Numbered from the stretch's first letter, positions 178 through 33,719 are shown. The stretch: 33,719 bases of DNA from Escherichia coli (GCF_003334315.1 NZ_QOWR01000051.1), one strand, 5' to 3'. The notes: a model not told the origin generated them from the sequence alone. Program-made: numbers and translations.

Positions 178-753
178 ATGCGTGTCATCACCCTGGCGGG
201 TAGTCCTCGCTTTCCTTCTCGCTCCAGCTCCTTGCTGGAATATGCGCGGGAAAAACTAAATGGCCTGGATGTAGAGGTTTATCACTGGAATCTGCAAAAC
301 TTCGCCCCGGAAGATCTGCTTTATGCTCGTTTCGATAGTCCGGCACTCAAGACCTTCACCGAACAGCTGCAACAGGCTGATGGACTGATAGTCGCTACAC
401 CTGTGTATAAAGCCGCCTATTCCGGCGCGCTGAAAACCCTGCTCGACCTGCTGCCAGAGCGCGCTTTGCAAGGCAAAGTGGTGCTACCGCTGGCGACGGG
501 CGGTACCGTGGCCCATCTGCTGGCGGTCGATTATGCCCTTAAACCAGTTTTAAGCGCACTGAAAGCTCAGGAGATCCTGCACGGCGTGTTTGCCGATGAC
601 TCACAAGTAATTGATTACCATCACAGACCCCAGTTCACGCCAAATCTGCAAACCCGTCTTGATACCGCGCTAGAAACTTTCTGGCAGGCATTGCACCGCC
701 GCGATGTTCAGGTTCCTGACCTTCTGTCTCTGCGAGGTAATGCCCATGCGTAA
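178..753 (+). CDS. ssuE: NADPH-dependent FMN reductase (sulfonate-sulfur utilisation)
   Basis: 191-aa ORF with RBS aaggagag upstream; product and length match E. coli SsuE; first gene of the ssuEADCB order. Confidence 0.93.
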   Translation: MRVITLAGSPRFPSRSSSLLEYAREKLNGLDVEVYHWNLQNFAPEDLLYARFDSPALKTFTEQLQQADGLIVATPVYKAAYSGALKTLLDLLPERALQGKVVLPLATGGTVAHLLAVDYALKPVLSALKAQEILHGVFADDSQVIDYHHRPQFTPNLQTRLDTALETFWQALHRRDVQVPDLLSLRGNAHA

Positions 754-1705
754 CATCATTAAACTGGCGCTGGTGGGATTGCTTAGCGTCTCTACGATTG
801 CGGTTGCTGCAGAATCCTCGCCTGAAGCGTTACGTATAGGCTATCAGAAAGGCAGTATTGGTATGGTACTGGCAAAAAGCCACCAGTTACTGGAAAAACG
901 CTATCCGCAATCAAAAATCTCCTGGGTGGAGTTCCCCGCGGGTCCGCAAATGTTGGAAGCGTTAAACGTTGGCAGTATTGATCTCGGCAGTACCGGGGAT
1001 ATTCCGCCAATCTTTGCCCAGGCTGCCGGGGCTGATTTGGTATATGTGGGCGTCGAGCCACCGAAGCCCAAAGCCGAAGTGATTCTGGTGGCAGAAAACA
1101 GCCCGATCAAAACCGTAGCCGATCTTAAAGGTCACAAAGTTGCCTTTCAGAAAGGTTCCAGTTCACACAACCTTTTACTGCGTGCACTGCGTCAGGCCGG
1201 ACTTAAGTTTACCGATATCCAACCCACTTACCTGACGCCCGCTGATGCCCGCGCCGCGTTCCAGCAAGGTAACGTTGACGCCTGGGCTATCTGGGATCCC
1301 TACTACTCTGCTGCATTATTACAGGGCGGCGTGCGGGTGCTGAAAGACGGCACCGATCTCAATCAAACTGGATCGTTTTATCTGGCAGCTCGTCCCTATG
1401 CAGAAAAAAACGGCGCTTTTATTCAGGGCGTACTGGCAACCTTTAGTGAGGCCGATGCGTTAACCCGCAGCCAGCGCGAGCAAAGCATCGCTTTACTGGC
1501 AAAAACGATGGGCTTACCGGCACCGGTGATTGCCTCTTACTTAGATCATCGCCCTCCTACCACCATCAAACCGGTTAACGCCGAGGTTGCCGTCTTACAG
1601 CAGCAAACGGCAGATCTGTTTTATGAAAATCGTCTGGTGCCGAAAAAAGTCGATATTCGCCAGCGCATCTGGCAGCCCACTCAACTGGAAGGAAAACAAT
1701 TATGA
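746..1705 (+). CDS. ssuA: Aliphatic sulfonate ABC transporter periplasmic binding protein
   Basis: ORF track starts at 704, but the signal-peptide start [21 protein letters not shown] begins at the ATG at 746, giving 319 aa; overlaps the ssuE stop by 8 bp. Confidence 0.9.
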
Positions 1706-2857: not shown

Positions 2858-3649
2858 ATGGCAACGCCAGTGAAGAAGTGGTTATTGCGCGTTGCCCCCT
2901 GGTTTTTACCGGTGGGCATCGTGGCGGTGTGGCAACTGGCCTCCTCGGTTGGCTGGCTGTCGACGCGTATTTTGCCTTCACCGGAAGGAGTGGTGACGGC
3001 GTTCTGGACGCTCTCCGCCAGCGGCGAACTGTGGCAGCATCTGGCGATCAGCTCCTGGCGGGCGCTGATTGGCTTTTCAATTGGCGGATCGCTGGGGTTG
3101 ATTTTGGGACTGATTAGCGGGCTATCTCGCTGGGGAGAACGGCTGCTGGATACCTCAATTCAGATGTTGCGCAACGTGCCGCATCTGGCGCTGATCCCGC
3201 TGGTGATTTTGTGGTTTGGCATTGATGAATCCGCAAAAATCTTTCTGGTGGCGCTCGGTACGCTATTCCCCATTTATATCAACACCTGGCATGGCATCCG
3301 TAATATCGATCGCGGGTTGGTGGAGATGGCGCGTAGCTATGGATTATCCGGCATACCGCTGTTTATCCATGTGATCCTGCCTGGTGCCCTGCCCTCAATT
3401 ATGGTCGGCGTGCGTTTTGCGTTGGGCCTGATGTGGCTGACGCTGATTGTTGCCGAAACCATTTCTGCCAATTCAGGCATTGGTTATCTGGCGATGAATG
3501 CGCGGGAGTTTTTGCAAACGGACGTGGTGGTAGTCGCTATTATTCTTTACGCCCTGCTCGGCAAACTGGCTGACGTCAGCGCGCAGCTGTTAGAGCGCCT
3601 CTGGTTGCGCTGGAACCCGGCTTATCATTTGAAGGAGGCCACGGTATGA
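2858..3649 (+). CDS. ssuC: Aliphatic sulfonate ABC transporter permease
   Basis: ORF track starts at 2813; the ATG at 2858 preceded by aaggaag gives 263 aa starting [10 protein letters not shown], a hydrophobic multi-helix permease. Confidence 0.9.
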
Positions 3650-10118: not shown

Positions 10119-10146
10119 AGAGCCAGCGCCCGCTGGCTCTTTTTTA
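10119..10146 (+). terminator. Intrinsic terminator of asnS
   Basis: agagccagcg-cc-cgctggctct hairpin followed by tttttat, 14 bp after the asnS stop. Confidence 0.8.
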
Positions 10147-14794: not shown

Positions 14795-16642
14795 TTACCT
14801 GATTAATTGTTCCGCTTTCGATACGATTTGCGAGCTGGATCGCGCAGGCAGATCATAATTGTAAATATCTGTACGATACTGGGTACGACCATCTGCACCA
14901 ACAAAGGCCGTCAGGTAGTAGAGATTCACCGGAATCGACTGCCGAATATTGACGTAACGTGTATCACCCTGCTTCAGCGCATCAGAAATACGTTTGTCAT
15001 TCCAGCCTGCATCCTGCAACAGCATATTCGCCAGATCGGAAGCTTTATTCACTCGTACACAGCCTGAGCTCAATGCGCGTGTATCACGCTTGAACAGATT
15101 GTGGTTCGGCGTGTCATGCAAATAAATGGCCTCTGAACTCGGCATATTGAATTTATAGCGCCCCAGCGAGTTCCGTGGGCCTGGAGCCTGCTGGAAGCGG
15201 AACGGTAAATTCGAGGCCGTGATTGTAGACCAGTCAACCTGCCATGGGTCAATCGCTTCTCTGCTGTTCCAGCCGCGCATCACCGTATAGCCATGGCTTT
15301 CGAGATATCCCGGATCGTTGCGCACTTTTGGCAGAATATCTTTGCGTGCCAGAGTTGGAGGTACGTTCCACGGCGGGTTTACCACTACGTTGTTAAGGGC
15401 ACTGCTCATCATCGGCGTTTTGCGATCGGGGCGACCGACAATGACTCGCGAATCCAGCACCTGATTGCCGTTCTGATAGTAGACCAGCGAATAGGCCGGA
15501 ATGTTAACCATGATCCCGGTAGAAAGCTCTGTTGGCAGCAAGCGCAATCGCTGGATGTTGAGAGCCAACACGCCAGCACGCTGGGCGGGCGTTACGTTTA
15601 ACCAGTCACGTGTTGCCGGGCCAATAGCACCATCTGCCCCCAATCCTTGCCATGCCTGAAAACGTTTAACGGCTTCCACCAGTTCATTATCGTAGGCGGC
15701 GCGAACGGCAGGCGCAGGTTTACTACGAGACGTCGTTTGCTTATCCATCGGCTTAGTTTCTGCTGTTTCAACAGTAACAGCGGATGGGCTGACTACCGCG
15801 TCAGTTGGCGTGTCATCGCCAGGTAGAGTAATTTTCGGCCCCCCGTCCAACATGCCTGTGCGTTGCAATATTTCGCGCAACGCCGGTACGTCGTTACTCC
15901 ACTGCCCTGGGCGCAACGTTGCTTTGCCGGTCAGTTGGGGCCACGGTTTGGTGTCACAGAGTAAGGCCAGTAACGATTCATGCATCGCCGCATATTGCGG
16001 ATGCTGCGGTGCCAGTCCTGCAACAAACGTAGGCAATTGACCTTTATCCAGCGCCAGCTGCCATTGGTTAATCACCGAGAGCGGCGGCGTTGCAAGTGCA
16101 TAAGGTTTACTGCTATATAGCCAGCGAGTGCCTTTGACCGGAATATTTGCAATGAAATGGAGATAGCCCATCATCGCATCAGAGAGCACCACGTCGCGTG
16201 CCATCCCGTTAACACCAGGATCGGTCAGTAACTCTACCCATTTATTAAACTGCGGCTGGAAACCGGCAATCGCCACCTCTGCCAGCTGTTGCTGGAAGGC
16301 TTTAACAGCATCACGGTTTTCCCACATGGGTTGCATATCGCGTGCGGCATACAACAGTTGAAGCTGGTTAAGATAAACCGGCTTGTAACCTGCGGGTAAT
16401 TGAGATTCGATTTGCGTGCGGGCTTTTTCTGCCGCACCTTCAGGCAATGGCTGGATCCCCGCCATTATTGCCGTGGCTTGCGCCTGCGGCAGTGCCTCGC
16501 CCTGTTCACTGACAGCCACCGGGCTGTCGCCAGGGATTACTTCAGGCTCATCGGCCTGCGCATTGAACAGTGGAGCGAATGTTACGGCCAGGCACAAACT
16601 GATTGCCGACAGCCGACGACCACACATCATATTAAGCAACAT
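14795..16642 (-). CDS. ldtD: L,D-transpeptidase LdtD (YcbB)
   Basis: 615 aa with N-terminal signal sequence and a C-terminal catalytic region containing ...HDTPNHNLF...SSGCVRV...; matches YcbB. Confidence 0.92.
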
Positions 16643-16801
16643 CCCTTGCCCCCTGTTTTTATCATACTCTGAATAGCCAGGCTGTTATTTTACGACTTGC
16701 CTGTACAACGCCAATACTCACGAAAGTATGACGAGCAAGCCTGTTACTCATCAGGCTTATCTTCAGTATATAAACGCCGATACGTTTTTACATAACCTAA
16801 T

Positions 16802-16816
16802 GTAAAGAAGTTTAAA
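16802..16816. promoter_or_regulatory. Putative CpxR box upstream of ldtD
   Basis: gtaaa-gaagt-ttaaa is one mismatch from the GTAAA-N5-GTAAA CpxR consensus, about 160 bp upstream of the ldtD start; ldtD is a reported Cpx regulon member. Found by eye only. Confidence 0.3.
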
Positions 16817-16860
16817 GAAAAGCGCGCCGTAATGTGCCACTTTTTTAGTGCAGAAACGGA

Positions 16861-16898
16861 GTTTTCGGAAAAAGAAAAGGCGGCATTGCTGCCGCCTT
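16861..16898 (-). terminator. Intrinsic terminator of mukB (end of smtA-mukFEB operon)
   Basis: On the minus strand, hairpin aaggcggca / tgccgcctt directly after the mukB stop, followed by ttttctttttcc. Confidence 0.8.
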
Positions 16899-16902
16899 AA
16901 TT

Positions 16903-19900
16903 TTAACTCGCCTGAGAAGGCGCTTCGTCAGTTCCTGGAAGCGTTTCAGGGAGTTGCGGCGCAAATCCTCGCAGGCCGACGACATGAACGTGTTCGGTAT
17001 TCTGGAAGACTTTACGCACCAGTTTATAGGTGGTGCCTTTCTCCGGGCTGATATTTTCCGGCGCTGCGATGATGAGTTGCATTTGCAAACGCTCACACAA
17101 TTCAAACAGCGTGGCGATAGAACGAGCATCCAGTCGCGCTGCTTCATCGAGGAACAGCAGGCGGCAAGGAGAGATATCTTTACCGCGCAGGCGGCGAGAT
17201 TCATCTTCCCAGCTTTGTACCACCATCACCAGAATCGACATACCGGTACCAATCGCCTCACCGGTCGACAATGCACCAGACTCTGCGCGCAGCCAGCCAT
17301 CGGAACCACGGTTAACCTCAACTTCCATTTCCAGATAGTTGCGGTAATCCAGCAGTTCTTCACCGATGGTCTGCGGCGTGCGCTGCCCCATATCAATCTG
17401 CGGGTTAAGACGTTGATACAGTTTCGCCAGCGCTTCCGAGAAGGTCAAACGGTTGCTGTTAAACAGATCCTGATGCTGCTCGTGCTGTTCAGAGAGCACA
17501 TCCAGTAGCATGGCGTGCGTTTCACGCACGTTCACGTTGAGACGCACGCTGTTCACCTGACCAAACGATACGTTCTGCAACCCCTGGTTGAGCATACGGA
17601 TACGGTTCTGCTCGCGCTGAATGGTTTTGCGAATGATGTTCGCCACGCTGCGGGAACTGATCGCCAGTTTCTGTTCACGGGAGGTTAATTCTTCGGTCAG
17701 ACGGCTAAGTTCAATCTCCATCTGTTCGATAGCTTCCACCGGATCATCGGTACGAATAATATCCTGACGAATACGTTCACGCAGATGCTGATAAACCGCC
17801 ACGAAGAACTGAATTTTACGCTCCGGACGTTTCGGATCTTCCGACATGCGCAGCACGTCGCGCAGATGTTCGTTATCCGCCACCGCCAGACGCAGCGCAC
17901 CTAACGCCTTATCCGACATGGAACGCAAATCATCAGCGGAGAGATAAGCCAGCTCACGACGGTGTAAGCGGCGCTCAACGCCGTTATCTTTCACCATGCG
18001 CATCACCGCACACCAGCCCGCTTTGGCGGTCACTACCTGCTCGCGCATCTCAAAGTAATCCCGCTCCAGCTTGCGCAGTTTGCGGGTCAGGTTGTCCATC
18101 TCCGCTTCGCAGAAGGTAAGCGCTTTTTCCAGTTGATTGCGGCGTGAACGGTTATTGCTCAGTTGCGCATGCAGCTCGTCACGGCGAATACGCGCCCGCT
18201 CTTCTGCCCCGCTATCAGCACGCACGCCGATATCCTGCAATTCACGTTGCAGATCGTTGAGTAGCTCTTTTTTGGTGTCGTAAGAACTTTTCAGCGAAGC
18301 CAGCACCTGGTTGTACTGACTCAACTGCGCTGCGTGACCGCGCAACGCTTCGCGAGCGCGGGTACGCTCCGCTTCCGCCTGTTCCAGACGTTCACGCAGT
18401 TTTTCGTTGAGATCGCTGTTACCGCTAAGCATTTCTGCCGAGTCAGAATAGCTAAAGTGCGCACGACGCTGCACCACTTCCGTCAGGGCAAACGCCTGCT
18501 GACGGGCATCGCGCTGCATCTGCTGAGAGTACGCGTAATCTTCTTTTAACTGTTCGAACTGTTCCGGGTCGCTCTGCAATACCGAAACAATCGGTTCCAG
18601 TTTCGCCAGTTGATTGCCAAACTGCTGAACAAAACGCGCGGCTTCCTGGGCTTCATCCAGACGTTCGCGGATTTCATCGACGCGATCCGCCAGGCTGTCA
18701 TCAGCCAACAGGTTGAGACGCGGCAGAATGCGGTTCAGCGCCGTAACGCCCTCTTTCGCCTGCTCAAACTGAATACGCTGCTGCTGGTTATCATTTTCAT
18801 GATTACTTAACGCCCGCTCCAGTTCGACGCGACGGCTGTTCAGTTGACGGATTTCTGCTTCCGGGTCAGACTCAAACGCAACCGCCAGATGACTGCCGAT
18901 AAAGCGGCTGAACGCCTGATGCAGACGCTGAGTTTTCTGTACATCAAAGGAGAGCGTGGCGAAGCGTTCGGAAAGCACTTCACGCTCGGCATGGAGGCTT
19001 TCAATACGGCTTTCACGCGCAGCACGACCAAACAGCGGCACTTCCGGGAAACGTGAATAACGCCACTGACGATCGGCGATTTTCACCACTACCGCTTTTT
19101 CCAGCTCATCAACGCTGAACACGCTGTCATCGAATGACTGCGGATCTCCTTCGATCAGATAGAGATCTTCCGGGCAATCGGTCAAGCCTTCCAGGTGTTC
19201 AGTTACCTGTGACAGATCTGGCACCACGATGGCGTGGCGTGACGGGCCATACAGCGCTGAGAAGTACGGCGCATCTTCCAGGCTAACGTCGTCATAAATT
19301 TCTGACAGCAGCACACCACCAAAACGCTCCGCCAGCGCGTTCAGACGCTGATCTTCAGAGCCGCCAGGCTGGCTTAAACGTTCGATCTCTTCATCGACGG
19401 CGTTTTTGCGCGCGCCCACTTCATCGCGTTCAACAATCGCCTCTCGCTCACGCTCCAGCAACTGTTGCAGATATTCGGTGACGTCCTGGCTGGAGGTAAA
19501 CTCTTCGCCGCACTGTTCGCTCAACTGGTTGAGACTGTTTTGCGCTGCCAGCCAAACCGGCGCACGCTGCATCAAACTCTGAATGCGAGACTGCAGCTGT
19601 TCCTGCTCCTGGCGCAGTGCCATGCGCTCTTCACGGGCGTTAGACACGCTATCGGAAAGAGAGGCAATGCGTGCTTCCAGTTCCTGATGCAGGGCTTCCA
19701 GTTCGTCGATATCAAAATTCTTGCCCTGACGTTTGCAGAAATCTGCCAGCAGACGCTCAGCTTCTTGCTGCTCGCGTAGACGCTGTTCCAGTTCGCTTAA
19801 TCGCATCCGCAGCGGCTGAACCTGCTCTGCCAGGTGACGCTGATCGACCCCTTCGCGCAATAGTTCGCGAGCGACATCCCACGCCTCGTTACGCGCCAGT

Positions 19901-21363
19901 GGGCCGTTGATTGCCACCACCAGCTGATAAGCCTGCTCAAACTGGCTGTGCGCGGTTTGCGCCATGCTCATTTTCTGCTCAAGAGAGAGCATTTTTTCAG
20001 TCGCTTCCAGCTCTTTCGCCTGGAAGGTTTCCAGCCATTCGGCGGCGCAGTCGGCGGTTAAGTCCGGCAGATGGCACAGTTCTTTGGCACGATTAAGCGC
20101 AGCAATCGCCTGGTTATACTGGATCGCGCGCGTTTGCTGGACGTCCAGCGCCTGCTGGTAGTCAGCAAGCTGGCTTTTCAGCTCGTCCACTTCCAGTTCG
20201 GCAGCTTCCGCACGAGCCTCATTCTCTTCCTGGCGTTCGATGGCTTCTGCCACCACTTCATTTTGCTCTTCCAGACGGATCTGCAGCTCATCGAGATCCG
20301 CTTCGTAGCGTTCGATCTTCTCCTGCTGACGCAGTGCGGTTTGCACCAGGTTCAGGTGATCACTGGCCGCCTGATAATCCGCTTCCAGATCGCCTTCGGC
20401 ACCGTTGTGCTCTGCCAGCTCACGCGCCATATCGACGTGTTTGTACTGCTCAGCCGCCAGTTGCTGACGCGAAGTATGTAGCTCGCGACGAAACTCCAGG
20501 GCTTTGTCGAGATGGACACGGCGCTCGTTGGCGTGACGCATGTAGTCCGCCGCCACGTAGTTGGTGGCTTCGCTGATCAGATGCTTAAACAGGTCGCGGT
20601 CCGACTGGGTGACACGAATCGCTTCCAGCGTCATACGGTTTTCACGCAGCGCCGCTTCCATGTCCTGGAACGCTTTACGCACGCCGCTGTTTTCTGGCAA
20701 CAGGTAGTCGCGCAGAGAACGGGTAATGGCACTGGAGATCCCGCCATACAGCGAAGCTTCGATCAGACGATAGAATTTGCTACGGTCAGATGCGGAGCGC
20801 AGACGACGCGCGATGATGCCCAGATCGAACATCAGCGAGTGGTAATCAGTAATGGAGTTGAACTGTTTAAACTGCACGCCTTCCATCGCCTCGAGCTTGT
20901 CTTTCAGCTCGTTAAGCGGCAGCACGCGCGCCTGGCGTTCGTTCAGGGTTTCGGTCACCAGCTGTGTCGGCTGCACCGACATCGGCAGTCCCTGAATGGC
21001 AAACGGCTTGATATCCACTTTACGATCGCGTCCGGCAACCTGTTGCAGACGCACACCGACCACCACGCGCTGGTGGCGCGAGTTAATGGTGTCGAGCATC
21101 GAATAACAGACACCCGCTTTCAGCTTACCGTGCAGACCTTTATCGCGCGAACCGCTGGTGGCCCCGGCTTCCGTAGTGTTACGGAAATGCAGCAGGGTCA
21201 GGTCGGGGATCAGCGCCGTAACGAACGCCGCCATGGTGGTGGATTTACCCGCCCCGTTACCGCCAGAAAGCGTCGTGACCAGCTCGTCAAGGTCAAAAGT
21301 TCGGGCAAAAAAGCCGTTCCAGTTAATCAGCGTCAGTGAGCGAAATTTACCGCGTTCAATCAT
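16903..21363 (-). CDS. mukB: Chromosome partition protein MukB (SMC-like condensin ATPase)
   Basis: 1486 aa with N-terminal Walker [10 protein letters not shown], long coiled-coil middle and C-terminal [11 protein letters not shown]; matches MukB. Confidence 0.96.
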
Positions 21364-22067
21364 TATTCTTCCTCTCCGCTATCTGGCTGATTCTCTTCGG
21401 TTTCATCGTTGAGTTGCAGATGATTTTCAATCGGCATTGCTTCGCCATCACGAATCAGGCGACGCTGTGCTTCACGGGGATCGTCGCCAGCACGCACATC
21501 GGCTCCGAAGCGGAACACCGATTCGGTAATGCGAAACTTGCTGCTGTCGTGGCCCATAAACCACACCATGCCTAAACGACGCAGACGGTTGAGCGAAGAA
21601 CGTACTTTCTCCTGCAACTTCTGACGGTCAACGTCTGAACCGGTTGAACGGTTGTTCACCAGTTTCAGCAGTTTTGCTTCATCGGCCAGGGTGAGCAGTT
21701 CGTCGTACAGTTCCTGCTGGGTGAAAATCCCCTCATTCGCCAGCCGTTCCGGGCTGAGATAGAGATAACAGAGGATTTTCCCGACCATCATATCCAGTTC
21801 CGACAAGACGGAACGAGGGATCAGCGTGGTGGAACGTGGGCGTAAATAGAAGAACCCTTCTGGTGCGCGAATAAGCTCAACGTTATAACGCGCGTAAAAC
21901 TCTTCCAGATATTCCTGAAAATCCATCAGGAATGCATGATTATCCAGTTCGTCGAGGCCAATATGGCGTCCTGAACGTAAGGCGCTGTCCAGCGCCGGAA
22001 ATAACGGATTCGCCAGCGCCTGCGCCAGCTTAACCGGCATCACTTGTTCAATATTTGTCGATGACAT
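21363..22067 (-). CDS. mukE: Chromosome partition protein MukE
   Basis: ORF track gives 243 aa from 22094; the expected 234-aa start [16 protein letters not shown]... is at 22067 (start assignment from memory, less certain). Stop overlaps the mukB start by 1 bp. Confidence 0.88.
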
Positions 22068-23370
22068 GCGCCTGTACCTTGGCTCCGTAATCATTAATCG
22101 GCTGCCATTTCGCTGGCAGTCCGGTGAAATCTGCTTGCGCTACGCCAAGACGTACCGCCTGATCAATAACAATACGCGCAACGTCAAAGTGACGTGCACG
22201 CGGATACTGTGACAGATATTCGCGTACCACCAGACCAAGATCCAGCGGCACTTGTCTGGTTTTGTACACGGCAAGTTGTTCTTCGATGATCGCCGCCAGC
22301 TGTTCGCGGATCTCGTTAAACTCTTCGTATTCCAGATCCTCAGGAAGTTCCCCAGTCACTTCTTCATCGCGCAGTGCCATCTCTTCGTCACGCATATCCA
22401 GCAGACGATCGGCATTGGCATAAGTTAGCGCCCACGGCTCATCAAAATAGGTTTGTACCGACTGACGTAACCGCTGAGCAAAGACGCGGTTTTTATCCAT
22501 ATCGATCGCGGTACGAATAAATTTGTGTACGTGGCGGTCGTAGCCAATCCACAAGTCGATGGATTGCTGGCCCCAACTGATAATACGATCGAGTTTGCTC
22601 TGCAGATCGAACACCAGACGATCGACGAAATGCAGATCGTCATGGGTCATCGTCGCATCCTGAATGCGCAACAGATTAGCCTGCAATTTGTCGCCTGCCG
22701 CTTCCAGCGTATCCTGCAATTCACGCAGCGTTCCGGAAGTTTCCGAAAGCAACAATTCACAGCTGGAAATCGCCGCCCGCCAGTCTTTGTTCAGCAACTG
22801 GGCGATATCGTCCTTCACCTGCTGCTGCTGTTCGTCCATCAGACGTTGCGTCAGGTCGATACTGTCGAAAATTTCTGCTACCGAATATTTCAGTGGCGCA
22901 TAGACATTACGGTGCCAGTGAAATTCATCACCGCCCTCTTCGGCGGCATCTGCTGCGCGTTTGAGCTCACCCGCCACAATCGACAACTGCATAGAAAGAC
23001 GCAGCGTAGAAAACTCGCGCTGACGGATGTAGTAGTCAGTAATGCCGATGCCGAGCGGCGTCAGACGGTAAATTGCGTTCCCTTCCGCCTGCTCGCTGGT
23101 AAAGCGGTTCAGCAGACGTTGACGCACCATGTCGTTGATCGCGTTATTGGCGCGCACGCCGATGGTTTCGCTGGTTTGCTCAAACGCATCACTCACATGG
23201 CGGAATGCATCCACCAGCTCGCCTTCACTCATCTCACCATCCAGACGCTCGCCGTTCAGCGTGGCAACCGCCAGCAGAAAAGAGAGTCGGTCTACCGGCA
23301 GCGAGATGGAGAAGTCATTTTTTCTGGCCCAGGCAACCAGTTCGGGGACTGTCTGGGAAAATTCACTCAT
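22048..23370 (-). CDS. mukF: Chromosome partition protein MukF (kleisin)
   Basis: 440 aa starting [22 protein letters not shown]...; overlaps the mukE start by about 20 bp. Confidence 0.95.
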
Positions 23371-24152
23371 ACTTTATCCTTGCTCTGCGGTTTGCGCGCG
23401 GTGACATGAATATAACGCCCCAGGGTAATATACGGTTCCTGACGGCAATAACGCGTTTCTAATTCAAGTAATGCTTCATAGCAGTCGCGCTGCTGGTGTT
23501 TCTCGCGCAGATAATCATGAAACACGCGAACGCCTGTCTTACCCATAATTTGCCAACCAGCTTCTTCCAGCCACAGATAAACCTGCGCCGGGTCGCGTGG
23601 ATAATCTGGCGAAAGCGTCCGTTTTTTCTTTTTCGGCATTCCCGCCTGCACGTAATCAAAATTCCCGGCGACCATGTTATGCATCAACAAACCATGCGCA
23701 TTGTAGAACATTAACGACAACACGCCGCCTGGACGCAACACTGACCACAGGGTCTGCAATACGCTGCGGGGATCAGCCACCCACTCGAGCACCGCATGGA
23801 ACAATATCAGATCAACGGGCGTTTCCAAATGCGAAGCAACATCCTGAGCGGCGCAATGTATAAATTGCATGTTGTCGCTCACACCTTTTGCTTCTGCCGC
23901 CTGTTTTGCGCGGTCGATCATCTGCGCAGAAAGATCGCATAAAATGACCTGATGCCCACGCTCGGCCATTTTGATTGCGGTCTGCCCTTCTCCACCGCCA
24001 GCATCCAGCACACGCAGTTTTTGCGGGCCCATTTCCGCCAGCACGCGATCGAGATCCTGCCACAGAATAGCCTGTCGAAGCTGCCCTTTGGTGGTGCCGT
24101 AAATGTTACGGGAAAACTTTTCCGCAATATCATCAAAATTGCGATCCTGCAT
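23367..24152 (-). CDS. smtA: SAM-dependent methyltransferase SmtA/CmoM
   Basis: SAM-binding motif VLDAGGGEG; ORF track starts at 24164 (265 aa), the expected 261-aa protein starts MQDRNFDD at 24152; ATGA overlap with the mukF start. Confidence 0.88.
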
Positions 24153-24287
24153 TGCTTTCTCCACCGGTTGGCTAAGACGTTTTCTGATAAAGACGCTATT
24201 TTGTCACAGCCACGGCGAGAATGAACCCGTCTGGTGTAATATCGCTGGCGATCCCTTGCTATATGGTTAAAAAAGGAACCAGAAAGG

Positions 24288-25067
24288 ATGCTTTTTACAC
24301 TGAAAAAAGTGATTGGCAATATGTTGCTGCCACTTCCGCTGATGTTGTTGATTATTGGCGCTGGCCTGGCGCTGCTGTGGTTTAGCCGTTTTCAAAAAAC
24401 CGGGAAGATTTTTATTAGCATTGGGTGGCTGGCGCTCTTGTTATTGAGTTTGCAACCGGTAGCCGACCGCCTGCTGCGTCCCATCGAAAGCACCTATCCG
24501 ACATGGAATAATTCGCAAAAAGTGGACTATATCGTGGTGCTCGGAGGTGGTTATACCTGGAACCCGCAGTGGGCACCGAGCTCTAATTTAATCAATAACA
24601 GTCTGCCACGCCTGAATGAAGGTATTCGCTTATGGCGCGAAAATCCGGGATCAAAACTGATCTTCACGGGAGGCGTAGCAAAAACCAATACGGTGAGTAC
24701 AGCGGAAGTAGGTGCCAGAGTTGCGCAATCGCTGGGCGTGCCGCGCGAGCAAATTATCACCCTGGATTTGCCAAAAGATACCGAAGAAGAAGCTGCAGCA
24801 GTGAAACAGGCGATTGGTGACGCCCCTTTCCTGCTGGTGACCTCCGCATCACATCTGCCGCGGGCGATGATCTTTTTTCAGCAGGAAGGGTTAAATCCGC
24901 TACCAGCCCCGGCGAATCAGTTGGCCATCGACTCGCCGCTTAACCCGTGGGAACGGGCAATCCCTTCTCCGGTCTGGTTGATGCATAGCGATCGTGTTGG
25001 CTATGAAACGCTTGGCCGTATCTGGCAGTGGCTAAAAGGTTCGTCAGGCGAGCCACGGCAAGAGTGA
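24288..25067 (+). CDS. elyC: Envelope biogenesis factor ElyC (YcbC, DUF218)
   Basis: 259 aa with N-terminal transmembrane segments; matches E. coli ElyC. Confidence 0.88.
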   Translation: MLFTLKKVIGNMLLPLPLMLLIIGAGLALLWFSRFQKTGKIFISIGWLALLLLSLQPVADRLLRPIESTYPTWNNSQKVDYIVVLGGGYTWNPQWAPSSNLINNSLPRLNEGIRLWRENPGSKLIFTGGVAKTNTVSTAEVGARVAQSLGVPREQIITLDLPKDTEEEAAAVKQAIGDAPFLLVTSASHLPRAMIFFQQEGLNPLPAPANQLAIDSPLNPWERAIPSPVWLMHSDRVGYETLGRIWQWLKGSSGEPRQE

Positions 25068-26090: not shown

Positions 26091-27016
<926 letters not shown>

Positions 27017-28336: not shown

Positions 28337-29323
28337 CTAGTTGCCAGAAGCCAGCAAGGTTAGTTGCGTAAGCAGTTTCGCTGGTTCATCACCTGAAAGC
28401 TGTGCGTCTACAGGCAAATACCACCAATTTTCTTCTGCAAAGGCCCGGCATTTCACCGCATCTTTTTCAGTCATTACCAGCGTTTGCCCGGCGCTTACCA
28501 ACGCACTGACATCCGCATGGTTCAAAGACTGATGATCGGCCAGCGGTACACATTTTTCCGGTTGTACGCCACACATCTTCAGCGTGGCAAAAAAGCGCGG
28601 CGGATGCCCAATCCCCGCCATCGCCACTACATGTTCAAGCTGAGCAACGTCACAACGCGTACCGGTACGTAAATTCACCGCCTGACCCGGCAGCAGATGC
28701 ATGGGGATTTCACCGCTGCGAGGGACACCGCCGTTGACGATTACCGCATCAACCGACTTTAAGCGCCCCGCTCGCTCACGCATTGGCCCCGCCGGCAACC
28801 ACCAGCCATTGCCAAAGCGACGCACACCATCAATAACGACAATTTCCACATCACGCGCCAGACGGTAATGCTGTAAACCGTCGTCGGTTACGATGATCTG
28901 CACATCAGGGTGTTGCGCCAGAATGGCTTTTACCGCATCAGAACGAACGGGAGAAACCGCAACAGGCGCATCAGTGCGTTGATAAATCAACACAGGTTCA
29001 TCACCCGCCTGTGCTGTTGTGGTATCTGCCGACAATAACAGCGGATAAGATTCAGCCTTACCACCATATCCCCGCGATACGACCCCCACGCGAATACCGC
29101 GCTGTTGCAACTGTTCCACCAGCCAGACAACGACCGGGGTTTTTCCGTTGCCGCCTGCGGTGAGATTACCAACCACGACAACCGGTACGGGGGCACGCCA
29201 GGCGCGCTTCAGTTTTAGTTTATAGCAAAGACGGATCGCGCCACTCACCAGGCCATACAACCAGGAGAGTGGCAGCAATAGCCGCCACAAAGGGGATTCA
29301 CCAGACCAGATTTTTTCGATCAT
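28337..29323 (-). CDS. lpxK: Tetraacyldisaccharide 4'-kinase (lipid A biosynthesis)
   Basis: 328 aa with P-loop [12 protein letters not shown]; ATGA overlap with the msbA stop. Confidence 0.94.
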
Positions 29324-31104: not shown

Positions 31105-33266
31105 CTACCCGTTATCCACTGGCACGCCAAACCACTGATGATACCAACGAGGTAAAATTTGCTCCCTGAGGCTGCTAATCCGCCAGCCTTGCGCTGAAAA
31201 ATTGACCGTTGTTTGACCTTGATGTGGAGTATCAATCCATTGATATCCTTGCAGTTGATAGCGATGCTTAACTTTGTTAGAGGGCAGTCGCCATGCGTTA
31301 TAGCGCGATGCCGATGCGAGTGCCACTTTTCCATTCACTCGCTGAATTAATGGCAACGATGATGAGGTATTACTGCCATGGTGAGGTACCTGAAGCAATG
31401 TTGCCTGCACTTGCTGCCAGTAACGGCTTAGCATCTTTTGTTCAGCTGGGGCTTCAATATCACCGGTTAGAAGAATGCTATTCGTCCCGTCATCAACCTT
31501 AACCACACAGGAATGGTTATTTCCTTTATCGTTGCTACCTTGTAAAGGCCAGTGCGCGCTGAAACGCAATCCTTGCCATTGCCACGCTTCGCCACGCACA
31601 CAGGGCTGATGATGTTCCCAGTTTAACGGACTTCTGATCCATAACATCGGCCATATATGCAATATTGAATCCAGCCCTCCCCGGTGATCCAGATGTTCAT
31701 GGCTCAGAATAACGCCTTCCGGTTCAAGATTATGCCAGTGGAGCCAGGGGATAATCAGTTGTTGCCCACTATCCCCTTCAGGCCAGGCCAGTCCTGTGTC
31801 ATAGAGAATCGCTTTGCCGTTTCTGGCTATCACCATTGCCAGCCCTTGCCCGACATCAAGCATGTACAGCTGCCACTCGTCAGGTCGAGGTTTTTGCCAC
31901 AGCGGCCAGCACATCAGCAAGCCTCCAGCCACACACATTGCTGGCAACGTTCGCCAGGCGTTTAATCGCCATACCACCAGTAAGAACCATGGGGAAAATG
32001 ATAGCCATTGCCAACATTCAGCAATGTTGATCCACCCTTCCGGCAAACTCTTTAACCCCCAGAAAAGTAAAGCCAAAGACCGGTCGGCAAGAAACCATAA
32101 CCCTTGCTCCAGGATTAACGGCCCGCTTAAATGCACAACCATCGCGGCGAGGATCAACGGAACCGTGATAAATGTCACCAAGGGAATTGCTAATAGATTT
32201 GCAATAAACGAGGTCAGACTAATGCCATGAAATATGACGATTTGCACGGGCATAAGCAGAAGTGTGATTCCCAGTTGCAGATGGATGAGGGAAACAACTG
32301 CACGCAATACCGGCGGCAGTTGCCACTCAGGACAGGGAAACCACTGATACCAAAATATCAATGCCGCGACCGCAGCGGCAGAGAGCCATAAACTTTGCGA
32401 GAGAATGGCAACAGGATCCATCAGCAAAATTGCCGCCAGACAACATATCCATACATCCCAGCCACTCCACTGTCGCCCACTTAACTTAAGCATTCCCCAC
32501 GTAGCAAGCGCCACCATGGTACGCAATGCAGGAGGTTGCATTCCCGTCAACCAGGCATAAAAAGCAGCACAGCAGATTCCGCCAATTAATGGTATTTGCC
32601 AGTGGATCCAGCGCCCAGGCAGAAAAATTTGTCCACTGCGAATGAGTCCGGCAGCCAGCAACGCCGCAAAAGCGATGTGCAATCCCGATATCGCCATTAA
32701 ATGCGCCGTTCCAGTATCGCGCATGATATTTTTGATTTCTTTGGGGACGGATAACCGTTCCCCCATACCTAAACCAAGAATAACCGCATTCCACGGATAG
32801 GGTTGCAGCGTTGTTTGTAGTGACGCCAGATACTGTGCACGCAGGCTACAATTCGGTTCAATGACACTTGCCTGCAGAAAACGGCCGGTGAGCGGCTGAT
32901 GCTGGGCAATGGCATAACGCTGGCTATCAAAGCCGCCATCATTAAGTTGGCCATGAACTGCACGAACTTTGAGTTTCATTGACCATTGTTGTCCAGCACA
33001 AACCGCTTGCGGAAGATATTCGCCATACATCACGAGACCTGACGCAGGGAATATACGTCGACCTTGTAGATGAGTAATTTGACCGTAATGAGTGGTCATG
33101 CCGTCAGTTGCAGTGATCTCAACAATTGCATCCTGCGTCGCGCCAGTTAAGGTTTCTCCTGCCCACAAAATTTGCTTTGCTGATAATATGCCCCAAACGA
33201 AAAACAGCAACGTCAGCGCGATATAACGGACGGTTTTAACAGGGATAAATGCCAGTACGCAGGCGA
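31105..33266 (-). pseudogene. ycaI: ComEC/Rec2-family inner-membrane protein YcaI, 5'-truncated by IS1
   Basis: The 701-aa ORF begins at a TTG at 33210, but the frame stays open upstream through 33266 (...LACVLAFIPVKTVRYIALT-LLFFVWGILS...) and runs into the IS1 inverted repeat at 33267 with no start codon. K-12 YcaI is about 754 aa, so roughly 30-35 N-terminal codons are missing. Confidence 0.8.
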
Positions 33267-33719
33267 GGTAATGACTCCAACTTATTGATAGTGTTTTATG
33301 TTCAGATAATGCCCGATGACTTTGTCATGCAGCTCCACCGATTTTGAGAACGACAGCGACTTCCGTCCCAGCCGTGCCAGGTGCTGCCTCAGATTCAGGT
33401 TATGCCGCTCAATTCGCTGCGTATATCGCTTGCTGATTACGTGCAGCTTTCCCTTCAGGCGGGATTCATACAGCGGCCAGCCATCCGTCATCCATATCAC
33501 CACGTCAAAGGGTGACAGCAGGCTCATAAGACGCCCCAGCGTCGCCATAGTGCGTTCACCGAATACGTGCGCAACAACCGTCTTCCGGAGACTGTCATAC
33601 GCGTAAAACAGCCAGCGCTGGCGCGATTTAGCCCCGACATAGCCCCACTGTTCGTCCATTTCCGCGCAGACGATGACGTCACTGCCCGGCTGTATGCGCG
33701 AGGTTACCGACTGCGGCCT
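33267..33719 (-). mobile_element. IS1 insertion sequence, partial (insB-proximal end; continues right of the window)
   Basis: Terminal inverted repeat ggtaatgactccaacttattgat at 33267-33289, followed by the InsB reading frame on the minus strand; inverted relative to the left-edge copy. Confidence 0.92.
33282..33719 (-). CDS. insB: IS1 transposase InsB (N-terminus and insA outside window)
   Basis: Minus-strand frame reads ...[31 protein letters not shown]...[21 protein letters not shown], open to the window edge; the ORF track reports only the part after the internal Met (33282-33659). Confidence 0.9.

Follow-up and report, generated by a model that had tools for sequence, protein, structure and literature searches.

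The cmoM-mukF-mukE-mukB locus

The window, by which we mean the whole stretch of 33,719 nt analysed (Escherichia coli, GCF_003334315.1 NZ_QOWR01000051.1), carries the cmoM(smtA)-mukF-mukE-mukB operon of E. coli on its minus strand (Table 1). mukF, mukE and mukB each encode one of the three subunits of MukBEF, the chromosome-condensing complex. Transfer of the RefSeq annotation onto the window gave intact reading frames, and all four proteins exceeded the NCBIfam equivalog cut-offs: CmoM with 504 bits (NF008264, cut-off 366, spanning 1-261 of 261), MukF with 845 bits (NF003615, 1-440 of 440), MukE with 412 bits (NF003602, residues 4-216 corresponding to profile positions 2-214) and MukB with 2647 bits (NF003422). 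Segment 16500-24500 shows 100% identity to E. coli chromosomes; it was matched by 5426/5426 complete E. coli genomes, 5425 of them across 80% or more of the segment. The same gene order on one strand was also found in 76-80 Enterobacteriaceae species. Compared with the K-12 operon (b0921-b0924), the genes, their order, their lengths and the junction distances are alike, as is the 260-nt gap to ldtD; there is no difference of substance, the window being another E. coli strain. Similarly, the MG1655 record (NC_000913.3) shows the same junction geometry and a MukE of 234 aa (NP_415443.2). The four genes have been described as one operon (Yamanaka, 1996, as cited in a passage of PMC4255302; see also PMC3871593). 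Gene identities, order, overlaps, terminator and chosen starts of the first-pass annotation match RefSeq including MG1655, the NCBIfam models and the literature; the minus-strand placement of all four genes was absent from it. Operon, overlaps and distances were already known from RefSeq, EcoCyc-derived tables and a published survey of gene-pair distances.

Table 1. Features of the operon and further gene overlaps in the window (SD, Shine-Dalgarno motif).
Feature	Position	Strand	Remarks
cmoM (smtA) CDS	23367-24152	-	261 aa, tRNA cmo5U34 methyltransferase, first gene of the operon; RefSeq
mukF CDS	22048-23370	-	440 aa, kleisin subunit; RefSeq
mukE CDS	21363-22067	-	234 aa; RefSeq
mukB CDS	16903-21363	-	1486 aa, SMC-like ATPase; RefSeq
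cmoM/mukF overlap, ATGA	23367-23370	-	4 nt, mukF start on cmoM stop; sequence
mukF/mukE overlap, ATGTCATCGACAAATATTGA	22048-22067	-	exactly 20 nt; sequence
mukE/mukB junction, TAATG	21361-21365	-	1-nt overlap, stop and start share one base; sequence
SD of cmoM, GGAG	24159-24162	-	6 nt before ATG 24152
SD of mukF, AAGGA	23377-23381	-	within cmoM 3' end; anti-SD duplex -5.2 kcal/mol
26-nt block before mukE ATG	22068-22093	-	within mukF 3' end; putative mukE ribosome-binding region
SD of mukB, GGAGAGG	21371-21377	-	within mukE 3' end; anti-SD duplex -6.6 kcal/mol
Alternative in-frame ATG, Met10 of MukE	22038-22040	-	7 nt past mukF stop; former 225-aa annotation
mukE ATG, rejected start	22092-22094	-	ACG in many Enterobacteriaceae (synonymous in mukF); no SD match
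Intrinsic terminator (predicted)	16867-16898	-	G+C-rich hairpin 16877-16898 and T-tract 16867-16876
ssuE/ssuA overlap	746-753		8 nt
ssuA/ssuD overlap	1702-1705		4 nt
ssuC/ssuB overlap	3646-3649		4 nt
ycaR/kdsB overlap	26834-26837		4 nt
msbA/lpxK overlap	29320-29323		4 nt

Gene junctions and their conservation

Overlaps of 4 bp (ATGA), about 20 bp and 1 bp had been proposed for the three junctions, and the sequence reads 4, exactly 20 and 1 nt, with the mukE reading frame one base downstream of that of mukF. The K-12 distances for these pairs are tabulated as -4, -20 and -1 (Huber et al., 2023; PMC10666635 supplement). The overlaps claimed for the sulfonate genes, ycaR/kdsB and msbA/lpxK were likewise recovered from the window coordinates, which in the first 10 kb equal those of the reference strain plus 1. 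Short gene overlaps are frequent and non-random in bacterial operons: of 2,987 same-direction E. coli gene pairs, 707 (24%) have a spacing from -8 to +6 nt, and the commonest distances are -4, -1 and -8 (PMC10666635). Only mukF/mukE falls outside this range among the three junctions of the operon.

Comparison across lineages shows that the junction geometry is evolutionarily labile. Within the Enterobacteriaceae, the one family covered by the profile search of genome contigs (identity at least 89%), the cmoM/mukF distance is -8, -4 or +3, and mukE and mukB overlap in 80/80 species, with -1 in 62, -4 in 14 and -8 in 4. Seven distant lineages with mukFEB/MksBEF-type condensin operons from other gammaproteobacteria were added individually from contigs of metagenomes and genomes, with gene calls taken from the sources and starts being predictions; here mukF/mukE distances run from -32 to +85 nt, including +34 and +85, and the mukE/mukB junction is tight or overlapping in 7/7. 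The order mukF-mukE-mukB is common to all seven, and of the two loci that extend beyond mukF on its upstream side, L085 has a cmoM-like gene and L083 does not, the other five contigs ending within or just before mukF. An smtA-mukFEB operon is predicted for Vibrio fischeri as well, with the smtA linkage of E. coli. The AAGGA ahead of mukF is essentially invariant over 76 species even though the cmoM stop shifts between them, and a purine-rich motif of the GGAG type is kept ahead of mukB in the junction variants over 80 species. In this operon, downstream starts and ribosome-binding sites are thus fixed while upstream stops drift, which is the usual origin of short overlaps.

Start codons of cmoM and mukE

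Within the operon, the longest open reading frame departs from the annotated start for two genes only, cmoM (GTG 24164 instead of ATG 24152) and mukE (ATG 22094 instead of ATG 22067). If the longest frames were the true ones, CmoM would have 265 aa, and MukE would have 243 aa with a 47-nt overlap with mukF. Each of the two codons is the earliest start following an in-frame stop, and one Photorhabdus record (P0074) annotates the long MukE form, but neither has a Shine-Dalgarno match: the anti-SD duplex reaches -6.4 kcal/mol at cmoM ATG 24152 and is lacking at GTG 24164, which shares one base (24162) with the GGAG of cmoM and so has no motif of its own. At the aligned position of the cmoM start, 76/76 species carry a start codon (ATG in 53, GTG in 23), and in 30 of them no in-frame start exists further upstream; in addition, no coding-type conservation is seen upstream of ATG 24152, and the CmoM profile already accounts for the complete 261-aa form. 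The residues that ATG 22094 would add to MukE merely mirror conservation in the mukF frame. Taken together, the comparative data effectively refute the longest-frame starts, and we regard them as extremely improbable.

The first-pass annotation had argued that the overlaps support the corrected starts. The starts themselves stand, on conservation and Shine-Dalgarno matches. The overlap as an argument does not: no gene of the operon precedes cmoM, so that no overlap informs its start, and the mukE starts at 22094 and 22067 both overlap mukF, so that overlap does not discriminate between them. The mukE starts are told apart by conservation and ribosome-binding sites instead. The comparison of homologues that had been proposed as a check favours the chosen starts through conserved ATG codons, synonymous freezing and N-termini, as do the Shine-Dalgarno matches.

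For mukE this comparative evidence favours ATG 22067 (234 aa) over both ATG 22040 and ATG 22094. ATG 22067 and the 20-nt overlap occur without exception among the Enterobacteriaceae (79/79 species), and the 20-nt overlap is also found in L085, where MukE identity is just 61%. Preservation of this ATG requires CAT at MukF His435, which is the codon used in 75/75 species; four of the five other invariant MukF His codons mix CAT and CAC. The 26-nt block in front of the ATG contains GGAG (22083-22086) and AAGG (22077-22080), with an anti-SD duplex of -5.8 kcal/mol, and 22067 is the only mukE start candidate with a Shine-Dalgarno match. Wobble-site entropy of mukF is 0.15 bit in this block and 1.09 bit upstream of it, and mukF codons 427-435 form the minimum of synonymous variation in the whole gene (0.054 bit; mean 0.958 bit). 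MukE is present in its 234-aa form in PDB 3EUH, 9GMB and 9GMD.

Initiation at ATG 22040 instead would yield a MukE of 225 aa without any mukF overlap, made by reinitiation after the mukF stop across a 7-nt gap, which falls within the range where reinitiation works. This form is the older K-12 annotation, used by Burkhardt et al. (2017; mukE length 677, ORF_distance 8), such constructs have been crystallised (PDB 7V8P, 3RPU), and ATG 22040 does not vary among 79 species of Enterobacteriaceae. However, the lack of a Shine-Dalgarno match upstream of it, the invariance of ATG 22067 despite the need for CAT rather than CAC at His435, and the strongest synonymous constraint in mukF directly upstream of 22067 all argue against the shorter form. 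The NCBIfam MukE profile starts at residue 3 of the 234-aa form, and RefSeq has revised MukE to 234 aa. Furthermore, homologues in lineages without the overlap have an equivalent N-terminal extension: in the lineage with a 34-nt mukF-mukE gap the MukE N-terminus is similar (MNENLQDLISTKL versus a 14-residue counterpart) and has no Met at the position of Met10. Sole use of ATG 22040 is therefore judged improbable. A literature search retrieved no study that maps initiation sites or the N-terminus of MukE directly, and the TRAINSPOTTER N-terminomics supplements hold no muk entries.

As a side aspect, a mukE start without overlap, which the first-pass annotation had named as the outcome that would speak against it, was once the official annotation in the form of ATG 22040.

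It is also conceivable, if rather doubtful, that mukE has two in-frame starts, a Shine-Dalgarno-driven one at 22067 (234 aa) and one at 22040 used by reinitiation after mukF (225 aa), with the 26-nt block setting MukE:MukF near 2:1. The invariance of both ATGs in 79 species and the crystallised 225-aa constructs are compatible with this idea. If it were true, the unusually long frozen block would be more than a Shine-Dalgarno site.

Transcription unit

The predicted terminator starts 5 nt past the mukB stop. Its hairpin AAGGCGGCAGCAATGCCGCCTT (16898..16877) has a 9-bp stem with six G-C pairs, a 4-nt loop and a stability of -16.5 kcal/mol, and is followed by the tail TTCTTTTT. In 62/68 species a hairpin with a T-run occurs no more than 90 nt from the mukB stop; the hairpin is kept although its stem and loop differ in sequence between species. 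That a single terminator follows mukB, as the first pass had stated, is borne out: this is the sole strong terminator-like site, other minus-strand matches in the operon being weak (three G-C pairs). Weak terminator-like matches inside cmoM were ascribed to chance, the total of such matches being 12 against 9.1 expected. Junctions of -4, -20 and -1 nt leave no space between the genes for a terminator or promoter.

No strong sigma-70 match was found in a consensus scan upstream of cmoM (cmoM-elyC spacer). Replacement of the promoter upstream of smtA by Para increased MukBEF expression (PMC7163298), and published mRNA abundance is similar over cmoM, mukF, mukE and mukB (162, 161, 221 and 223). 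Two consensus sigma-70 sites precede ldtD, which fits a separate unit for that gene. Rfam gave no match in 16400-24500. Folding of the mukF/mukE junction gave a weak predicted structure (-33.6 kcal/mol, z = -2.1); as the block is nearly invariant, covariation is uninformative, and we claim no structure there.

Translational coupling

The layout makes translational coupling in this operon plausible. Coupled overlapping pairs (Huber et al., 2019, 2023; classically trpBA and atpHA) have ATGA or TAATG junctions and a Shine-Dalgarno motif in the upstream gene, and the same is seen here, with motifs inside the upstream gene for mukF, mukE and mukB (duplexes of -5.2 to -6.6 kcal/mol). Also as in coupled pairs, mukF/mukE and mukE/mukB encode subunits of one complex. 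In contrast to such pairs, mukF and mukE overlap by 20 nt, ribosome density rises downstream, and coupling is here suggested from sequence layout. Termination-reinitiation is associated with a junction window of -8 to +10 nt, which includes cmoM/mukF (-4) and mukE/mukB (-1) and excludes mukF/mukE; at -20, the latter is not to be filed under termination-reinitiation pairs. No paper joining mukFEB with translational coupling was found in a literature search.

Published ribosome densities climb along the operon, from 44.7 for cmoM and 78.5 for mukF to 130.3 for mukE and 116.5 for mukB. As reinitiation alone cannot give such a rise, independent internal initiation must be substantial, and as translation is higher for downstream than for upstream genes, dependence on upstream translation cannot be complete. 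These densities would also suit a reading, which we consider possible but unlikely, that the overlaps are real but neutral by-products of stop drift, each gene being initiated at its own Shine-Dalgarno motif without meaningful coupling. The wandering of the upstream stops at cmoM/mukF and mukE/mukB against fixed downstream signals, and the wide mukF-mukE gaps in other lineages, point in the same direction; moreover, cmoM is functionally unrelated to Muk (flagged 'CMPLX not' in the PMC10666635 supplement). On the other hand, mukE and mukB overlap in 87/87 lineages examined (tight or overlapping in the distant seven), and the mukF/mukE overlap is frozen over the Enterobacteriaceae and in L085. 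Native E. coli pairs with 4-nt overlaps showed translational coupling in 4/5 tested cases, bioBF being the uncoupled one (PMC6728339), and genes for subunits of heteromeric complexes show a 4.5-fold enrichment among short overlaps.

Proposed model and significance

From the conserved starts, the internal Shine-Dalgarno motifs and the terminator, it is very probable that the four genes form one operon with the annotated starts, and overlaps of 4, 20 and 1 nt, which follow from those starts; the compact layout may aid initiation of the next gene. Transcription would run from a promoter upstream of cmoM to the Rho-independent terminator past mukB. With the Shine-Dalgarno motif of each downstream gene in the 3' end of the preceding one, ribosomes ending one gene may begin the next. 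The ATGA and TAATG junctions would permit termination-reinitiation, and the mukF/mukE junction would depend on Shine-Dalgarno-directed initiation, with ribosomes on the upstream gene helping to hold that site open. Output may then be tuned toward the MukBEF subunit ratio by ribosomes that initiate independently at the internal binding sites. The overlaps are the ordinary result of operon compaction and upstream stop-codon drift, and no special device.

The significance is small beyond annotation quality. As a by-product, comparative support was obtained for the 234-aa MukE start and hence for the 20-nt overlap. As older datasets used the 225-aa MukE, their mukE translation-efficiency and Shine-Dalgarno values, such as the aSD of -0.28 under the old annotation (Burkhardt et al., 2017), would refer to the wrong site.

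Layout of the operon

A sequence search with positions 16500-24500 gave 100% identity to several E. coli chromosomes, and matches were found in 5426/5426 complete E. coli genomes, in 5425 of them over at least 80% of the segment's length. Gene placement was taken from the RefSeq annotation of identical DNA. All four reading frames are intact in the window. CmoM, MukF, MukE and MukB each scored above the cut-off of a curated NCBIfam equivalog model, and the matches span the proteins almost from end to end. The genes are packed closely, ribosome-binding sites lie inside the operon and a terminator closes it; the geometry is identical to that in MG1655 (NC_000913.3). The first-pass annotation had left the minus-strand orientation unstated.

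Coordinates of the operon genes, their overlaps and the terminator
Feature	Position	Strand	Remark
cmoM (current name of smtA)	23367-24152	minus	RefSeq annotation
mukF	22048-23370	minus	RefSeq annotation
mukE	21363-22067	minus	RefSeq annotation
mukB	16903-21363	minus	RefSeq annotation
cmoM/mukF overlap	23367-23370	minus	common ATGA, 4 nt
mukF/mukE overlap	22048-22067	minus	exactly 20 nt in common
mukE/mukB junction	21361-21365	minus	A of TAATG in common, 1 nt
Terminator hairpin	16877-16898	minus	9 bp, G+C-rich, -16.5 kcal/mol, then T-tract

Overlaps of 4, about 20 and 1 nt had been claimed for the three junctions, and direct reading of the sequence bore them out (4, 20 and 1 nt). Those named for other gene pairs were also right, namely ssuE/ssuA (8 nt) and, with 4 nt each, ssuA/ssuD, ssuC/ssuB, ycaR/kdsB and msbA/lpxK. 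The smtA-mukF-mukE-mukB genes have been reported as one operon (PMC4255302, PMC3871593), and the K-12 operon described in 1996 is the same as the one in the window. The supplement to Huber et al. 2023 (PMC10666635) gives the K-12 distances (negative for overlaps, positive for gaps, in nt) as -4, -20 and -1, with +260 from mukB to ldtD, and distances from -8 to +6 nt account for 24% of the same-direction gene pairs in E. coli (PMC10666635). The operon and its overlaps are thus already known, and nothing in them is new.

On the operon strand, no terminator-like site within the operon is strong except the single terminator proposed after mukB. Its hairpin begins 5 nt past the mukB stop, and a terminator-like hairpin is retained 3' of mukB in 62/68 species with varying stem and loop sequences. 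A simple scan upstream of cmoM found no consensus promoter. Between mukB and ldtD, which are 260 nt apart, the minus strand has two sigma-70-like promoter matches (16661-16714) upstream of the ldtD start at 16642, as would fit an ldtD transcribed as its own unit.

Elsewhere, the window departs from the reference strain after 33266, and the rest (33267-33719) matches an IS1A-like element that interrupts ycaI (ComEC family; 31105-33266 in the window) in its 5' part, with an IS1/ycaI junction present identically in other E. coli strains; the ycaI ORF remaining in the window has 701 aa (31105-33210, TTG start) vs 754 aa. The convergent genes elyC (plus) and ycbJ (minus) overlap at their 3' ends by 24 nt (25044-25067). 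Just downstream of asnS, the T-run after a hairpin (about 10130-10140) has one T fewer than in strain CFSAN061762, which shifts the coordinates in the first 10 kb by +1.

Start codons of cmoM and mukE

Within the operon, only cmoM and mukE have starts departing from the longest ORF. These corrected starts had been preferred because of the overlaps; the starts proved right on other evidence, but the overlaps themselves lend no support, since no operon gene precedes cmoM, and mukE overlaps mukF whether it begins at the 243-aa or the 234-aa start. The check proposed at the time, homologue alignment, places a start codon at the cmoM start position in 76/76 Enterobacteriaceae species, 30 of which lack any in-frame start further upstream. 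ATG 24152 of cmoM has GGAG 6 nt upstream; GTG 24164, which opens the longest ORF, shares one base with this GGAG and is itself preceded by no Shine-Dalgarno match.

For mukE three starts were considered: ATG 22094 (longest ORF, 243 aa), ATG 22067 (RefSeq, 234 aa) and ATG 22040 (225 aa). The 225-aa form goes back to an older K-12 annotation, on which Burkhardt et al. 2017 relied (length 677, ORF_distance 8, aSD -0.28), and is the construct of PDB 7V8P and 3RPU; 3EUH, 9GMB and 9GMD have 234 aa. With ATG 22040, the mukF/mukE overlap turns into a 7-nt gap, the kind of alternative start that had been named as telling against the overlaps; comparison of 80 Enterobacteriaceae species loci instead favours ATG 22067, since an ATG at this position and the 20-nt overlap occur in 79/79 species. 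It is also the only candidate with a Shine-Dalgarno match (GGAG and AAGG), and the NCBIfam MukE profile begins at residue 3 of the 234-aa form. ATG 22094 is replaced by ACG, a mukF-silent change, in many species and lacks a Shine-Dalgarno match.

In the 26 nt preceding ATG 22067, even the mukF wobble positions hardly vary, with an entropy of 0.15 bit vs 1.09 bit over the preceding 51 codons, and mukF codons 427-435 show the lowest synonymous variation of the whole gene (0.054 vs a mean of 0.958 bit). The first two bases of the mukE ATG come from the codon of MukF His435. This codon is CAT throughout (75/75 species), and four of the five other invariant MukF His codons are mixed CAT/CAC. Further away, a lineage with 61% MukE identity keeps both the ATG-in-CATGTC arrangement and the 20-nt overlap, and one with 69% identity, in which mukE follows mukF after a gap of 34 nt, retains MNENLQDLISTKL, resembling the E. 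coli MukE N-terminus, with Ile at the position of E. coli Met10. From this comparative and sequence evidence we concluded that ATG 22067 is the predicted main mukE start. Like it, ATG 22040 is invariant, and it follows the mukF stop at a distance of 7 nt; reinitiation there, yielding a 225-aa MukE as a minor isoform, appears improbable.

One element of the operon alone is slightly unusual, the conserved 20-nt overlap together with the frozen block before it, and a ribosome-binding site lying within coding sequence explains this in an ordinary way. Folding of the mukF/mukE junction gave only a weak RNA structure (z = -2.1), and an Rfam search of 16400-24500 gave no match. Synonymous variation is also very low across 75 species in the first ~15 mukF codons (about 23326-23370), which may reflect initiation constraints just after the cmoM overlap.

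Translation of the operon

Subunits of complexes are 4.5-fold enriched among short overlaps. Translational coupling was found in 4/5 native E. coli 4-nt overlaps tested (PMC6728339), and Para in place of the promoter upstream of smtA led to more MukBEF (PMC7163298). Termination-reinitiation may contribute at the ATGA and TAATG junctions; the -20 mukF/mukE junction falls outside its -8 to +10 window, and initiation there is probably Shine-Dalgarno-driven. Ribosome densities of Burkhardt et al. 2017 are 44.7 for smtA, 78.5 for mukF, 130.3 for mukE (old coordinates) and 116.5 for mukB. Reinitiation alone cannot give this downstream rise in output, so independent initiation is substantial. At ~1:1.7:1.5, the F:E:B density ratio comes near the MukB2E4F2 composition given in a review. 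In the same K-12 data, mRNA levels are 162, 161, 221 and 223 in gene order (mukE on the old 225-aa coordinates); the step from ~161 (smtA, mukF) to ~221 (mukE, mukB) could reflect a promoter inside mukF or mRNA segments of unequal stability.

Evolution of the junctions

Some MukE homologues from other lineages (P0127, P0130, P0133, P0136) are 450-574 aa long owing to largely low-complexity, Asp/Glu-rich C-terminal tails of ~240-350 aa beyond the MukE domain of ~215-220 residues; the acidic tail of E. coli MukE has just 15 residues.

Among Enterobacteriaceae, the cmoM/mukF distance is -8 in 36 species, -4 in 10 and +3 in 30, and that of mukE/mukB is -1 in 62, -4 in 14 and -8 in 4. In seven distant MukE lineages, with distances from the sources' own gene calls, mukF/mukE values were +34, +85, -20, -8, -32, +1 and -4, and mukE/mukB values, in the same order, -1, -1, -7, -4, -11, -8 and -4. 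Therefore, mukE and mukB always overlapped, and the other two junctions vary in spacing but stay close. What remains constant is the start of each downstream gene with its Shine-Dalgarno motif; the stop of the gene before it shifts.
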